DNA of 10,204 bases from a virus: the UHGV virus genome UHGV-0144897; one strand, given 5' to 3'. Under the pieces are notes generated by a model. It saw only the letters and a list, made by a program, of their open reading frames with translations, was not told the origin of the DNA and ran no database searches. The position numbers were made by a program, and so were the translations under genes. Positions 2,670 to 8,301 of the stretch are shown here, in pieces (position 1 is the stretch's first letter; each line of letters begins with the position of its first letter).

Positions 2670-3212
2670 TCACATAACCCCCAGCATCGATGTAACCATT
2701 GTCATCAGCGGCCCCACCTGCTCCGGCATGAGGCGGAACAGCGACGCTATACCCTCGCTTACCTCTTTCAGCTTCTGATGCTCCGGAGCGTCCAGCAGCA
2801 CGGCCTGCTTTGCTTCGGCACACTCTTTCATCGCAGAGGCGATCAGCGACATCGTGTCGTTCTGCGGTGCCAGGCGGTTGCGAAATTCCAGTGGAAGTAC
2901 CGCCATGATTGCGGGCGTCAGCTGGCGCACATTCTCGCGGTACTGCTCTGAGTCGAAGCGGTTATCTAGGAAGCGAAAAAGTTTCTGGCGCGCCCTGCTG
3001 ATGTCTTCCGGGAAGCTGATGGCGGTCCCGCCCTGCTCCCGGTATTCGTTGATGATCAGCGCCGAAACGACGTCCTGATTGTCCAGCGCCGATGACCATG
3101 CACGGACCGCATCGCGGATCTTTTCGTGGCCTGGCGCCGCTTTAGGTTGAGCGCGGTTTATCATTGCTCCCGGGTGTATTCCGGTATTGTGTTGATACGC
3201 AAGTGAATGCAT
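2670..3212 (-). CDS. cII-slot regulatory protein (180 aa), family uncertain (possibly the larger CII-like/YdaT-like type)
   Basis: ORF-track 2670..3212. ATG 3212..3210 with AAGGGA RBS, 30 nt downstream of the Cro-like stop. The position between cro-like and O-like genes matches lambda cII, but the protein is about twice as long and not recognisably lambda CII. Confidence 0.6.
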   Translation of the reverse strand: MHSLAYQHNTGIHPGAMINRAQPKAAPGHEKIRDAVRAWSSALDNQDVVSALIINEYREQGGTAISFPEDISRARQKLFRFLDNRFDSEQYRENVRQLTPAIMAVLPLEFRNRLAPQNDTMSLIASAMKECAEAKQAVLLDAPEHQKLKEVSEGIASLFRLMPEQVGPLMTMVTSMLGVM

Positions 3213-3241
3213 TGCTTTCCCTTTCGTGGTTAGGGCCGCCG

Positions 3242-3469
3242 TTAAGCGGCTTTTGGTTTACTGATTTCAAGAATCTGGTTTTCGGTAAACTGACCACCAG
3301 ATGCAGCTGCGATTTTGGACGCATAGCCTGTTTCGCCTGTGTAGTCGGTGCGCGGTAGGCAACCGCTATTAATCCACTTGTAAATAGCGCGGGGAGTGCG
3401 CCCGCAAGCCTTCGCCACCACCGGTACACGGATTTGTTTGATGATGTCGCCAAGGTTTTTAGGTTGCAT
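3242..3469 (-). CDS. Cro-like / YdaS-like HTH DNA-binding protein (75 aa)
   Basis: ORF-track 3242..3469. ATG 3469..3467 with GAGGG RBS. HTH-like VVAKACGRTPRAIYKWINSG. Divergent from the cI-like repressor across an operator-rich region. Confidence 0.75.
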   Translation of the reverse strand: MQPKNLGDIIKQIRVPVVAKACGRTPRAIYKWINSGCLPRTDYTGETGYASKIAAASGGQFTENQILEISKPKAA

Positions 3470-3485
3470 TTGTTAACCCTCAAAA

Positions 3486-3559
3486 TTGAACTGTAAGTAC
3501 ATATTATGTCGGAACTGATAGTTCACGCAAGTGATATTATGATTGAACCTATGGTTCAA
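3486..3559. promoter_or_regulatory. OR-like control region: three TGAAC/GTTCA-type operator dyads with divergent PR-like and PRM-like promoters
   Basis: Site A TTGAACTGTAAGTACAT (3486..3502); site B GAACT-GAT-AGTTC (3512..3524); site C TTGAACC-TAT-GGTTCAA (3543..3559). Minus-strand promoter: -35 TTGCGT (3530..3525), 16-bp spacer containing site B, -10 CATAAT (3508..3503). Plus-strand candidate: -35 CTGATA (3515..3520), -10 TATGAT (3538..3543). Site A recurs near-identically in the pL-like region. Confidence 0.45.
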
Positions 3560-4261
3560 GAAGAAAAAGCGCGTACAGAGTTTTCCCAACGGCTAGCGCT
3601 GGCCTGTGATAAAGCTGGTTTACCTGCTCATGGTCGTCAGGCTGAAATTGCAAAGCGAATGAAGCTAACACCAAAAGCAGTAAGCAAGTGGTTCAATGGG
3701 GAGGCTATTCCAAGACGTGGCAAGCTGCAGGAACTGGCGGCTATAATTGGCACATCCTCGTCTTACCTATTAGGCGATAGTGCAGCAGATGGCATATCTG
3801 AAGGGCATATGGCAATGAGGGACGATTCTTTCCGTGTAGACGTTTTTGATATTCAAGCTAGCGCTGGGCAAGGAATTCTTGTGCGAGATGAGTTCATTGA
3901 AACAATCAGATCCATAGAGTATTCAACCGAAGAGGCTCGCGCCGTATTTGGTGGGCGCCCAGCTGACCACATAAAAATGATTGCCGTGAATGGCGATTCT
4001 ATGTCTGGCACGTTCGAGCCGAGAGACCAGATCTTCGTCGACGTGAGCATCGACTGCTTTGACGGTGACGGCATATACATTTTCGTTCTGGACAATGATC
4101 TCTACATAAAGCGCCTTCAAAAGCAGCACAAAAAATTAGCTGTGATTTCAGACAACAAAAAATATGAGACCTGGTATATCGAGGATGGTGATTTTTCATC
4201 TCTTCGGATCTGCGCGAAGGTCTTGGTAAGCCAATCTAGAGCATATAGATTTCATAGCTGA
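3506..4261 (+). CDS. cI-like prophage repressor (N-terminal HTH, C-terminal S24/LexA-type autopeptidase)
   Basis: ORF-track 251 aa. HTH GRQAEIAKRMKLTPKAVSKWFNGEAIP resembles the lambda cI recognition region. S24 motifs AVNGDSMSG (Ser) and LYIKRL (Lys). No SD before any candidate ATG (3506, 3539, 3551); start may be leaderless at 3551, inside dyad C. Confidence 0.9.
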   Translation: MSELIVHASDIMIEPMVQEEKARTEFSQRLALACDKAGLPAHGRQAEIAKRMKLTPKAVSKWFNGEAIPRRGKLQELAAIIGTSSSYLLGDSAADGISEGHMAMRDDSFRVDVFDIQASAGQGILVRDEFIETIRSIEYSTEEARAVFGGRPADHIKMIAVNGDSMSGTFEPRDQIFVDVSIDCFDGDGIYIFVLDNDLYIKRLQKQHKKLAVISDNKKYETWYIEDGDFSSLRICAKVLVSQSRAYRFHS

Positions 4262-4272
4262 GGAAGTTAAGC

Positions 4273-4860
4273 ATGGAAGCAATTAAGGTTACAGATCTTA
4301 GTGATGGAAGCGGTTTGTACGAGCTTGGCGACCACTTCATCACCTGCAAATTAAGCCACGATAAACGTTGGCAACTAGGTGCTTTCAAACGTGATGAAAG
4401 CAAGCTCAGAGATGACACACTGGCGGTTTTGAAGAATGAAAAATTCATGTTTATGGTTAAGCTCGGCGGACAGCTTTCTCCCAAGCCTCAATGCATAGCT
4501 GTTAACGGGCGATTTTTATTTTCTGTCCATACCGGCAAAGACAACAACATGGCTGCAGCCATAGTCATGGATAACACCGGGAAAGAGTTATTCAAGATAG
4601 AAACTTCCACTCACCTCATCAGTTCGGCCATATCTGAATTTGGGCGCTACATCGCCCTATCGTTTGCCGGTAGCAAAAACAAAGATGATTTTTACGCGCA
4701 CCGGCTTGAGGTCATAAACATTGATACCGGAGAGGTGTTGATGTCCGTTATCAAAACAGACTTCCTTCGATACGCTGAGCTTTCAGTTGTTGAGCCAGAC
4801 GGCGGACTTTTCGCAACTTTTAATGGTCGCACAAGGCTTGTTGATGTGACGAACCTCTAA
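4273..4860 (+). CDS. hypothetical protein (195 aa) translationally linked to the repressor; rexAB-slot moron, candidate exclusion/defence gene
   Basis: ORF-track 4273..4860. GAGGAAG RBS 6 nt upstream of the ATG; starts 12 nt after the cI-like TGA. No Walker, HTH or TM segment recognised. First 60 nt are about 45% GC. Confidence 0.8.
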   Translation: MEAIKVTDLSDGSGLYELGDHFITCKLSHDKRWQLGAFKRDESKLRDDTLAVLKNEKFMFMVKLGGQLSPKPQCIAVNGRFLFSVHTGKDNNMAAAIVMDNTGKELFKIETSTHLISSAISEFGRYIALSFAGSKNKDDFYAHRLEVINIDTGEVLMSVIKTDFLRYAELSVVEPDGGLFATFNGRTRLVDVTNL

Positions 4861-4923
4861 TAAATCAAACCAGCCCCAACCCACCTCGCCCAATCAATAA
4901 AAAATTCAAAAATATTTCTCCTT

Positions 4924-5012
4924 AAAGTTCATAAAGTTAATCGTATATGAACTTTCCATTCACAAACAATGTACTTTTGGTACTTTACATGAATGAACTA
5001 TTGGTACATTAT
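4924..5012 (+). promoter_or_regulatory. pL/OL-like region: operator-like dyads and candidate leftward early promoter
   Basis: Inverted repeat AAAGTTCATA (4924..4933) / TATGAACTTT (4946..4955). TGAACT-N4-GTACAT at 4994..5009 matches OR site A (3487..3502). Candidate -35 TTTACA (4984..4989) and -10 CATTAT (5007..5012), 17-bp spacer. GTAC-containing repeats TTGGTAC at 4977 and 5001. Confidence 0.35.
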
Positions 5013-5230
5013 CAATCCATCGAAACGAAACATCGACAGCTGAGCGAAGTTAGCCAGCGGCGGAGTGGAGTTAGATGACCGCTTAGAGCCGCCACTTGAA
5101 TTTCAGCAGGTGACGGGGAGCGCGAAGGGTGAAGCGGACGTGAGAGCGTTGGCGTGACCAGCTGGAACTAAAGGTTTACCAGCAGCTCTTTGCGAGGGGC
5201 TGACGGTAAACAAACAGAGAGGTGGAAATC

Positions 5231-5419
5231 ATGCTTGGGTGTGAAAAGTGCGACCACGGATTCGTGTTCACCAGATGCTGTTCTGGTCTTGCTGAAATGT
5301 GTGGATGCGGCGGAATGCCGGTTCAGGCCACTAATTGCAAGAACTGCAATCCAGAGAATAAAGAGCCGGATGACGCGGAGACAGAATCGCTTCTCCAGTA
5401 TGTCGAATGGGTCGATTGA
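5231..5419 (+). CDS. small Cys-rich protein (62 aa), putative zinc-binding; first gene of early-left operon
   Basis: Part of ORF-track 5222..5419 (GTG start). ATG 5231 has AGAGAGG 8 nt upstream. MLGCEKCDHGFVFTRCCSGLAEMCGCGGMPVQATNCKNCNPENKEPDDAETESLLQYVEWVD has 9 Cys in CxxC/CC/CxC arrangements and an acidic C-terminus. Confidence 0.6.
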   Translation: MLGCEKCDHGFVFTRCCSGLAEMCGCGGMPVQATNCKNCNPENKEPDDAETESLLQYVEWVD

Positions 5420-7116: not shown

Positions 7117-7512
7117 ATGCAACCTTACGAGCGATTAACCTCTGAACGTCTGGCAAGTTTGCCAGAAGGATCCCGACTAAAACTCGGCGGGCAAATTATC
7201 AAACTTACCGGGCGCGGGTCATTCACCAACAGTGCCGGGCGAACTGAGAACATGATCGAGTATGTCGATTCCCGTGGCGTTCCCGGTAGTTTTGCAGAAA
7301 GCATCATTCTCGACTCAGCTACCGAGTATCTCAGCTCTGTAATGTGTGCCTACTGCGGCTCGCGGCGCCATAAAAGCGATTGCACTGTTCAGACGGTATC
7401 GACCTACATGTCGACGTCACAAAAGCATTTCTGCACTGACAAAGGCTGCGCTGAGAAGTTCTTCCGCCAGAACCATTCCCGCGCCAAGACTTCACGGAGA
7501 ACGCGATGGTAA
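7117..7512 (+). CDS. hypothetical protein (131 aa) with C-terminal Ogr/Delta-like CxxC...CxxxxC zinc finger
   Basis: ORF-track 7117..7512. AAGGAG RBS 5 nt upstream. CAYCGSRRHKSDCTVQTVSTYMSTSQKHFCTDKGCAEKF recalls the P2 Ogr pattern (CPLC...YHQCQNVNCSATF), from memory. Confidence 0.7.
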   Translation: MQPYERLTSERLASLPEGSRLKLGGQIIKLTGRGSFTNSAGRTENMIEYVDSRGVPGSFAESIILDSATEYLSSVMCAYCGSRRHKSDCTVQTVSTYMSTSQKHFCTDKGCAEKFFRQNHSRAKTSRRTRW

Positions 7513-7644: not shown

Positions 7645-8301
7645 ATGTTGAGAGTTATTGATACCGAAACTACCAGCCTGGAAGGCAGTGTGCTGGAGAT
7701 TGCCAGCGTTGATATCGTCGACGGCGTTATTTGTAATCCCATGAGCGACTTTGTGAAGCCCACTGAAGCGATTAGCTTCGAGGCTATGGCTATCCACCAT
7801 ATCACTGAAGATATGGTCGCTGACGCCCCGCTGATTGGTGAGGTTATCGGTCGTTACCTTGGCGCGCAGGCTTACGTCGCTCACAACGCGAAGTTCGATA
7901 AATCGAAGCTACCACAAATCGACGCGCCGTGGATCTGCACCGCTAAGCTGGCCCGTGCTCTTCTCCCGGATCACCCAAGCCACAGTAACCAGTACCTGCG
8001 TTACAGCCTGGGCCTGAAACCTGAACTTCCGGAAGGCCTGTATGCGCACCGCGCGCTATATGACTGCTACGTCACTGCTGAATTGCTTCTGTACATGGGA
8101 CGCCTGGCGAAATGGACGTTTGGCGAAATGCGCGCCATTTCAAACAGCCCGTCACTGATTAAGGCGATCCGGTTCGGCAAGCACAAGGGCCTGACGTTTG
8201 AAGAAATTGCGAAGGTCGACCCTGGCTATCTCCGTTGGTTGTCCAGCAACAGCGACGACGAAGACATTCTCTTCACCATCAAACACTGGCTTAAGGGGTG
8301 A
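7645..8301 (+). CDS. DnaQ-family DEDDh 3'-5' exonuclease, ExoX-like (218 aa)
   Basis: ORF-track 7537..8301 begins with TTG. Preferred start is ATG 7645 with GGAGA RBS, so the protein starts at the Exo I motif MLRVIDTETT. Also YVAHNAKFD, HRALYDCYVTAELL and C-terminal FGKHKGLTFEEIAKVDPGYLRWL, matching my recollection of E. coli ExoX. Confidence 0.9.
   Translation: MLRVIDTETTSLEGSVLEIASVDIVDGVICNPMSDFVKPTEAISFEAMAIHHITEDMVADAPLIGEVIGRYLGAQAYVAHNAKFDKSKLPQIDAPWICTAKLARALLPDHPSHSNQYLRYSLGLKPELPEGLYAHRALYDCYVTAELLLYMGRLAKWTFGEMRAISNSPSLIKAIRFGKHKGLTFEEIAKVDPGYLRWLSSNSDDEDILFTIKHWLKG

Follow-up and report, generated by a model that had tools for sequence, protein, structure and literature searches.

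What is the function of a gene that a lambdoid prophage keeps between its repressor gene and its left operator? The question is raised by a 10,204-nucleotide stretch of the virus genome UHGV-0144897 (the window), which represents the early region of such a prophage and in which an open reading frame (ORF) for a protein of 195 amino acids directly follows a cI-like repressor gene. Our analysis indicates that this gene is real and optional, that its product is predicted to be a WD40-like mini-propeller of about four blades, and that the gene is best filed as a new, unannotated case of prophage moron cargo that is presumably expressed in the lysogen from the immunity region. The most likely role that we can assign to it, and one that we hold tentatively, would be exclusion or defence, in which the propeller would sequester or block some protein on which a superinfecting phage depends.

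The gene is located within the immunity region, between cI and the oL/pL elements (coordinates in Table 1). The initial annotation had described it as lying directly past the stop codon of a cI-like gene, with a GAGGAAG ribosome-binding site of its own, and ahead of a pL-like region, and this description was borne out. The upstream ORF carries repressor domains and matches phrog_4, 'transcriptional repressor' (2e-50), and the repressor appears as an XRE or LexA-family regulator in the annotations of E. coli prophages. The gap between its stop codon (ending at 4261) and the ATG at 4273 is 11 nucleotides, and this spacing, together with the TGAGGAA junction sequence, is unchanged in five alleles. 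A set of three operators and a pL-like promoter follow the gene. The extent of the gene had to be revised: the range originally given, 4262-4920, does hold the 195-amino-acid ORF, the ORF proper is shorter, and the remainder is spacer.

The limits of the immunity region are marked by a 15-bp operator motif, TGWAC-N5-GTWCA with at most one mismatch. The 10.2-kb window contains six copies, compared with an expectation of 0.75, and none of the 200 shuffles used as the control reached that count. Three copies lie on either side of the cI-195-amino-acid gene pair, and judging from their positions this layout is the tripartite oR/oL arrangement. A promoter scan placed a pRM-like site among the oR copies, directed into cI, and the pL-like site over the oL copies, and found no further promoter-like site on the plus strand between the two. 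Since the gene lies inside the cI-oL/pL interval, 11 nucleotides past cI and without a promoter-like site of its own, the lysogen should produce its protein from the repressor transcripts, a co-transcription with cI that we infer from the anatomy of the region.

We next consider whether the ORF encodes a protein at all. The window was compared with four alleles, those of E. coli GB089 (NZ_CP013663), Citrobacter freundii, Enterobacter kobei and one metagenome, and the ratio of nonsynonymous to synonymous substitution rates (dN/dS) of the ORF was 0.07-0.14, with dS values of up to 0.9; for cI in the identical pairs the ratio was 0.01-0.06. The length of the protein is kept at 192-195 amino acids in homologues down to 30% identity. 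Because of this purifying selection and the confident AlphaFold models described below, the gene is real and not a chance ORF. A reading in which the ORF is not functional, being either a chance frame or a decaying remnant, would fit the annotation of the family, which nowhere goes beyond 'hypothetical protein' and does not do so for any of the 264 members of the 90% cluster of the window protein. The same cluster spans Enterobacter, Citrobacter and E. coli, and its breadth, the conserved length, the models and the low dN/dS all speak against that reading, which the selection and structure evidence refutes and to which we give a negligible probability.

The homologues with at least 85% identity, found in the Enterobacter cloacae complex, Citrobacter and E. 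coli, are all positioned 11 nucleotides behind one cI. The block that these loci have in common corresponds to 3185-5067 of the window and comprises cro, oR, cI, the 195-amino-acid gene, oL/pL and the first 50 nucleotides of the pL transcript, while the replication and early-left genes that flank it vary between prophages; by this comparison the cro-oR-cI-gene-oL/pL unit travels as a single mosaic block. The prophage of E. coli ET846 and the Citrobacter phage Omnitron have related cro and cI genes, with 81-83% nucleotide identity over 3247-4268 of the window, and also carry the oR operator trio. In both, the distance from cI to oL is about 120 bp, compared with 687 bp in the window, their operators are as in the window, and their junction sequence aligns on either side of the 195-amino-acid gene. 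The difference is thus a clean presence or absence of about 600 bp, and the gene is optional, because these two prophages with the same operators have an empty slot.

The linkage of the gene to its repressor bears on the possibility that the product is an accessory regulator of the prophage switch, one that would bind cI, RecA, a protease or a cII-like factor and so tune maintenance or induction. The association of all alleles of at least 85% identity with one cI allele, through an invariant 11-nucleotide junction, is what such a role might lead one to expect, yet prophages of the same immunity function without the gene, and the more distant homologues described below adjoin no repressor. We therefore regard a regulatory role as improbable.

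Beyond these prophages, the family is small. A phmmer search of 1.84 billion representatives gave 13 matches and a profile search of 5.8 billion clusters gave 18 clusters at 90% identity, tblastn against plasmids gave no match, and a search of the literature on the protein accessions and on DUF6246 (a neighbour of the distant homologues, see below) returned nothing relevant. One member, on a Citrobacter freundii chromosome (locus L016, 5589-9130), has a transposase of the IS110 family between the 195-amino-acid gene and pL region on one side and the Ral-KilR early-left genes on the other. This prophage is probably defective for early-left expression, and it retains an intact cI and 195-amino-acid gene.

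Predicted fold of the product

The protein has a mass of 21.7 kDa and an isoelectric point of 6.2. It contains no signal peptide or transmembrane segment, the highest Kyte-Doolittle mean over 17 residues being 1.02, and is predicted to be cytoplasmic and soluble. Searches of Pfam, PHROG, PADLOC and NCBIfam with the protein gave zero matches, and a profile search of the PDB by sequence returned nothing significant. An AlphaFold2 run on a 16-sequence alignment gave a model with a predicted local distance difference test score (pLDDT) of 91.7 and a predicted template modelling score of 0.88, showing an all-beta structure of 17 strands without any real helix. The AlphaFold model of a Providencia homologue that is 30% identical has the same order of strands (pLDDT 88.6). 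When the model was compared with the PDB and BFVD using Foldseek, only WD40 and other beta-propellers were matched, with E values of about 1e-6; the query-normalised template modelling (TM) score was only 0.5-0.58, and every match was seven-bladed.

Sequence comparison points in the same direction. In the phmmer search, residues from about 70 to 185 matched bacterial WD40 arrays with library-wide E values of 5e-8 to 4e-4, one of these arrays being attached to an nSTAND1 NTPase. Alignment to WD40 repeats with hhalign gave an E value of 4.9e-5 and a probability of 68%, a similarity at the generic level of the blade motif, and the protein also showed a weak signal of internal repetition every 45 amino acids or so (E 0.046). 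The Pfam WD40 family did not match the window protein, and one homologue matched Beta-prop_THOC3 at 0.002, far under the cutoff. On the basis of the model and these matches we predict a WD40-like mini-propeller with about four blades. The initial annotation had called the protein beta-rich, which the model confirms. It had also recognised no motif; this stands for a Walker A motif, a helix-turn-helix and a transmembrane segment, which neither the family libraries nor the hydropathy profile revealed, and does not stand for the blade repeats.

The WD40 propellers known to date have seven or eight blades and are about 300 amino acids or more in length. The 195-amino-acid protein shares with them the four-stranded blade repeats and a motif of the type hydrophobic-SxxG(R/K)Y(I/L)A(L/T), and differs from them in having only about four blades, in reaching no Pfam threshold and in its TM score against seven-bladed structures. 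Four blades and a single closing strand (4x4+1) would account for its length and its number of strands. The strand count, the ordered N-terminal strand and the TM score of 0.5-0.58 against seven-bladed rings are compatible with a closed four-blade ring; alternatively, the protein may be a half-propeller that pairs into an eight-bladed dimer. The invariant residues (S84/H86/D90-type motifs, G79, F81, F83 and E174-P175-G177) look structural, and no catalytic motif is apparent. W33, D47, K137 and E154 are invariant too and are counted, with E174/P175/G177, as surface residues. The searches of Pfam, PHROG, PADLOC and NCBIfam and the hydropathy profile gave no enzymatic, DNA-binding or membrane module.

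The WD40 similarity raises the possibility of counter-defence or self-protection, in which the propeller would neutralise an immune sensor of the host or of a rival element, or would shield a prophage protein from such sensors, and would so protect the prophage at induction. Its distant relatives by sequence are all WD40 arrays, among them the nSTAND1 NTPase-WD40 protein, which is of the conflict-system type; a free-standing fragment of a WD40 sensor could serve as a decoy, and prophages do have counter-defence partners (PMC11364771, PMC10884400). On the other hand, the similarity is of the generic kind noted above, anti-defence genes are usually early lytic genes and are not co-transcribed with the repressor, and no cognate defence gene adjoins the 195-amino-acid gene in the window. 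Such a function seems to us unlikely, if a little less so than the tuning of the prophage switch.

Homologues in tail operons

Members of the family with 30-52% identity were found in Klebsiella phage Kp4856-1, Serratia, Providencia, Vibrio casei and metagenomes. Each of them lies in a tail operon, past the genes for the major tail protein and DUF6246/phrog_791 and before the tape-measure gene, while in the related phages Flyfo Tbat1_6, Enterobacter CobraSix and Erwinia Eho49 the DUF6246 gene directly adjoins the tape-measure gene. At four such loci the guanine-cytosine (GC) content of the propeller gene is 6-11 points under that of the flanking tail genes, and all four cassettes close with a strong intrinsic terminator, with a stem of 8-11 bp, just before the tape-measure gene; promoters upstream of the cassettes were weak or not detected. 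Because they consist of extra DNA of lower GC content with a private terminator inside a late operon, these cassettes can be classed as morons. The site between DUF6246 and the tape-measure gene is that of the first moron described, gene 15 of HK97, which encodes a superinfection-exclusion protein (PMC3594210). By this comparison the family is mobile cargo that lands in two classic lysogen-expressed sites.

This second site also invites the view that the protein is a tail-assembly or virion component which was displaced into the immunity region in the prophage lineage of the window. Half of the family is found between the DUF6246 and tape-measure genes, which is the usual place of tail chaperones. 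Nevertheless, related phages lack any gene at this junction, the cassette is of low GC content with a strong terminator behind it within the late operon, the site is shared with KilA-N, Arc-like and secreted-protein morons, and the window gene is under repressor control. The moron hallmarks of the tail-site copies rule out an essential role in tail assembly, and a virion function of any kind is very improbable. The initial annotation had counted homology to a structural family against its idea of a defence gene; here the structural tail-gene role was rejected in view of the related phages without the gene, the terminators and the low GC content, and the gene is optional at both sites.

All tail-operon copies have, 8-50 nucleotides past the propeller gene, a small gene that encodes either an exported or a membrane protein. 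Across the Klebsiella/Serratia-type, Providencia and Vibrio loci these downstream proteins are mutually non-homologous; they are a phrog_13843 protein that has a signal peptide, a lipoprotein carrying an LAGC lipobox and a transmembrane protein. The propeller may pair with envelope proteins that are interchangeable, or the loci may hold two independent morons with a common terminator. A conserved two-gene system of propeller and small downstream protein was considered and rejected, as the downstream proteins are non-homologous and none is present in the window.

Two further observations concern individual tail loci. In the Providencia prophage (locus L003, 4128-7935) the junction between DUF6246 and the tape-measure gene is a multi-gene cargo hotspot that holds an Arc-like repressor on the opposite strand, a 395-amino-acid protein with a signal peptide, a 334-amino-acid protein and a 131-amino-acid membrane protein. 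These hotspot proteins have no family matches, and several are set apart by terminators of their own (7437-7454 and 7916-7935). The Vibrio casei homologue, as called, begins with a hydrophobic N-terminal segment of 17 residues followed by KPRKK (locus L007, 7986-8130; mean hydropathy 3.1), a segment that would hold the propeller on the inner face of the membrane. Translation from an internal ATG (8115), which has a GAGGA Shine-Dalgarno sequence, would instead give a soluble form of 194 amino acids, like all other members. As the start is uncertain, membrane tethering was not relied on.

Proposed role and comparable systems

The slot occupied by the 195-amino-acid gene is that of rexAB in lambda, bstA in BTP1 and 40A in phi80. 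The initial annotation had drawn the parallel with rexAB, and its suggestion of accessory cargo is strengthened by the empty slots and by the tail-site morons. The lambda RexAB system consists of a sensor and a polytopic membrane channel and kills the infected cell. The rex genes share with the 195-amino-acid gene their slot and their expected expression, being located after cI, co-oriented with it and served by the repressor promoters. The gene in the window differs from them in encoding a single soluble propeller, with no RexB-like membrane protein and no sequence similarity to the Rex proteins.

The interval from cI to pL, home to rexAB and bstA, has been described as a hotspot for mosaic cargo, served by one of the most active promoters of prophages (PMC8585504). 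BstA of the Salmonella prophage BTP1 is likewise encoded by a lone accessory gene right after cI, with a presumed shared promoter, and occurs at that conserved place in many prophages (PMC8585504). It has a KilA-N-like N-terminal domain and a DNA-based self-immunity element (aba), of which the 195-amino-acid protein has neither, a KilA-N domain being absent from its Pfam results. Both BstA and RexAB cause abortive infection, unlike the mode of action that we propose for the propeller. In phi80 the annotated order is cI, 40A, three CI operators with pL, then nutL and N, which matches the layout of the window, and 40A, annotated with an 'acetate kinase superfamily domain', is again a single accessory gene between cI and oL/pL in a partly homologous phage; its product is unrelated to the 195-amino-acid protein (hhalign probability 0.2%).

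At the second site the comparison is with gp15 of HK97, which occupies the position equivalent to that of the distant propeller homologues, between the chaperone-position gene and the tape-measure gene (PMC3594210). This is a small YebO-like inner-membrane protein, whereas the propeller family is soluble and unrelated to it in sequence. For the proposed mechanism the closest parallels are Tab and Tai, small, effector-less moron proteins that are made constitutively by prophages and block tail assembly by binding, or interfering with, a structural protein of the invader (PMC10884400, PMC11364771). They belong to the mechanism class that we propose for the propeller, and Tab has 83 residues. The 195-amino-acid protein showed no relation to the 203-amino-acid hypothetical protein ABF05_gp52 of phi80, encoded upstream of the packaging module and only provisionally taken as taiEcA. 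The beta-propeller defence protein of Vassallo et al. was also considered and set aside as different, being a seven-bladed propeller fused to an Mrr nuclease.

These comparisons suggest the following model. The 195-amino-acid gene would be moron-type cargo that a lambdoid prophage of Enterobacter, Citrobacter and E. coli carries in its immunity cassette, and it would be transcribed along with cI, from the pRM-like promoter in the lysogen and from a cII-dependent promoter during establishment. Translation from its own strong Shine-Dalgarno sequence, which lies over the cI stop codon, would lead to continuous synthesis in lysogens. With no partner gene and no effector, the propeller would probably act stoichiometrically as a protein-binding module, and would bind and block either a protein needed by a superinfecting phage or a host factor used by that phage. 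The outcome would be exclusion or defence of the lysogen without a toxic effector, following the logic of superinfection exclusion (Sie) proteins, Tab and Tai and not that of RexAB-type abortive infection. With still more reserve than for the role itself, we suggest that the family may be a new single-protein exclusion or defence family, a four-blade WD40-like mini-propeller that captures a phage protein, or a host protein required by the phage, in stoichiometric fashion, with no enzyme or toxin involved, and has spread as a moron between the cI-pL and chaperone-tape-measure sites of siphophages.

Several points weigh against a role in exclusion. The PADLOC search that the initial annotation had proposed did not link the protein to any known defence family: none of the 5,027 defence protein models of PADLOC-DB v2 was matched at E values of up to 1, and no other family library gave a match. 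Among the neighbouring tail-site morons there were no PADLOC matches and Pfam recognised only one KilA-N and one XhlA-like protein, so that these neighbours are not known defence genes. In the window, the gene lacks both a promoter and an intrinsic terminator of its own, and its GC content (0.45) is close to that of cI (0.46; window mean, 0.51), which limits the classic moron signatures to the distant homologues. A filled cassette occurs in 7 of 5,426 complete E. coli genomes, a rarity which implies that any benefit is not broad. Furthermore, morons also encode virulence, fitness and regulatory functions, and position alone is no proof of defence. Finally, the partner of a propeller as small as this might just as well be a host protein, bound for reasons that have nothing to do with phages.

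This last point leads to the strongest of the alternatives, that the protein is a lysogenic-conversion or fitness factor whose propeller binds a host protein and alters stress tolerance, the envelope, virulence or metabolism. The evidence from position and from moron character is identical to that for exclusion, morons are known in such roles (PMC3594210), the protein lacks similarity to any defence family in PADLOC, and WD40-like propellers are generic scaffolds. However, both sites of the family are best documented for cargo that acts in exclusion or abortive infection, namely rexAB and bstA at one site and HK97 gp15 at the other (PMC8585504, PMC3594210), and the protein is cytoplasmic without a secretion signal, so it is not a secreted effector. 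We consider a fitness role somewhat unlikely, and rank the possible roles with exclusion or defence first, followed by fitness functions unrelated to phages, a counter-defence decoy, tuning of the switch and, last, a virion function.

Uncharacterised genes are common in this slot, and the 195-amino-acid gene is a well-founded candidate and not a surprise. The cI-to-pL slot is a proven source of anti-phage genes expressed in lysogens (rexAB, bstA), and most of its cargo is unannotated. The present case is cleanly delimited, with a natural presence/absence pair that has identical operators, strong purifying selection and a confident fold prediction, and the same family is also found at the HK97 gp15-type moron site of unrelated tail operons. 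If exclusion of phages is indeed its function, the gene would add an effector-less, propeller-based binder to the defence repertoire, in the form of a small test object of 22 kDa that is easy to clone; if it is not, the protein is still a rare, possibly four-bladed, WD40-like protein in bacteria.

Other features of the immunity region

The coordinates of the features in the window and in the tail-operon loci are collected in Table 1.

Table 1. Features of the window and of four tail-operon loci that carry distant homologues of the 195-amino-acid protein
Feature	Coordinates	Strand or position	Basis or remark
YdaT/CII-like gene	2670-3212	-	
Cro-like gene, 75 amino acids	3242-3469	-	
oR-type region, three operator copies (3487-3501, 3511-3525, 3544-3558)	3487-3558	between cro and cI	motif search
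cI-like repressor, HTH_3 and Peptidase_S24, 251 amino acids as called	3506-4261	+	Pfam and PHROG matches
pRM-like promoter, CTGATA-17-TATGAT, directed into cI	3515-3543	+	promoter scan
Shine-Dalgarno sequence GAGGAAG of the 195-amino-acid gene	4260-4266	+	overlaps cI stop TGA (4259-4261), 6 nucleotides before ATG
195-amino-acid gene, predicted WD40-like mini-propeller product	4273-4860	+	ORF list; ends in double stop TAA TAA
C-rich, G-poor unstructured spacer, 17 C and 2 G in 33 nucleotides	4866-4898	+	base composition, folding
oL-type region, three operator copies (4948-4962, 4970-4984, 4994-5008)	4948-5008	3' of the 195-amino-acid gene	motif search
pL-like sigma-70-like promoter, TTTACA-17-CATTAT, overlapping the oL set	4984-5012	+	promoter scan
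Terminator, locus L010	8941-8962		
Terminator, locus L003	9019-9043		another at 7916-7935, just 5' of the cassette
Terminator, locus L007	9318-9341		
Terminator, locus L002	5926-5945		
Small gene 3' of propeller gene, locus L010	8588-8920		
Small gene 3' of propeller gene, locus L002	5552-5923		
Small gene 3' of propeller gene, locus L003	8599-8991		
Small gene 3' of propeller gene, locus L007	8744-9292		

The start of the repressor deserves comment. In cI as called, from the ATG at 3506, the first 17 codons contain the second and third oR operators and the pRM-like promoter. An alternative start at the ATG at 3551, about 7 nucleotides past the -10 element TATGAT, may give a leaderless cI of 236 amino acids, which would resemble the case of lambda pRM and equals the phi80 cI in length. 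The PGAP start of cI in E. coli ET846 differs again, being equivalent to position 3539.

Downstream of the 195-amino-acid gene, the C-rich spacer contains no intrinsic (hairpin) terminator. Its C-richness is kept in all alleles despite changes in sequence, including that of Omnitron with its empty slot, and the spacer may be a candidate rut-type Rho-dependent stop for the repressor transcript ahead of oL/pL. In the empty-slot allele of ET846 (locus L024, 4015-4135), the short spacer between cI and oL has a GC-rich inverted repeat, GGGGCTAGG...CTTAGCCC, which is absent from the window and may be a hairpin terminator that does the same job as that proposed for the C-rich spacer.

Across the five alleles the block at about 4900-5067 is almost unchanged, while neighbouring coding DNA reaches a dS of 0.9. 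Within this block, five prophages that are mosaic elsewhere do not differ at all over the approximately 50 nucleotides downstream of the pL-like promoter (to about 5067). The 205-nucleotide pL leader (5013-5221) folds better than its shuffles (z -2.8), with a strong hairpin at 5174-5211, and an Rfam scan of the whole window gave no match. The first ORF past the promoter, at 5222-5419, resembles an ECs_2282-family zinc-binding protein, and no N-like gene follows. The leader could be an RNA-based (put-like) or other antitermination element.

On the minus strand, in addition to cro and the gene in the cII position, the window has replication genes of the O-like and DnaC-like kinds. Two matches were obtained for the gene in the cII position, one to Pfam YdaT_toxin (8e-28) and one to phrog_163, 'CII-like transcriptional activator' (2e-60), and the gene thus illustrates how the name 'YdaT toxin' has become attached to a gene in the position of a cII-type regulator.

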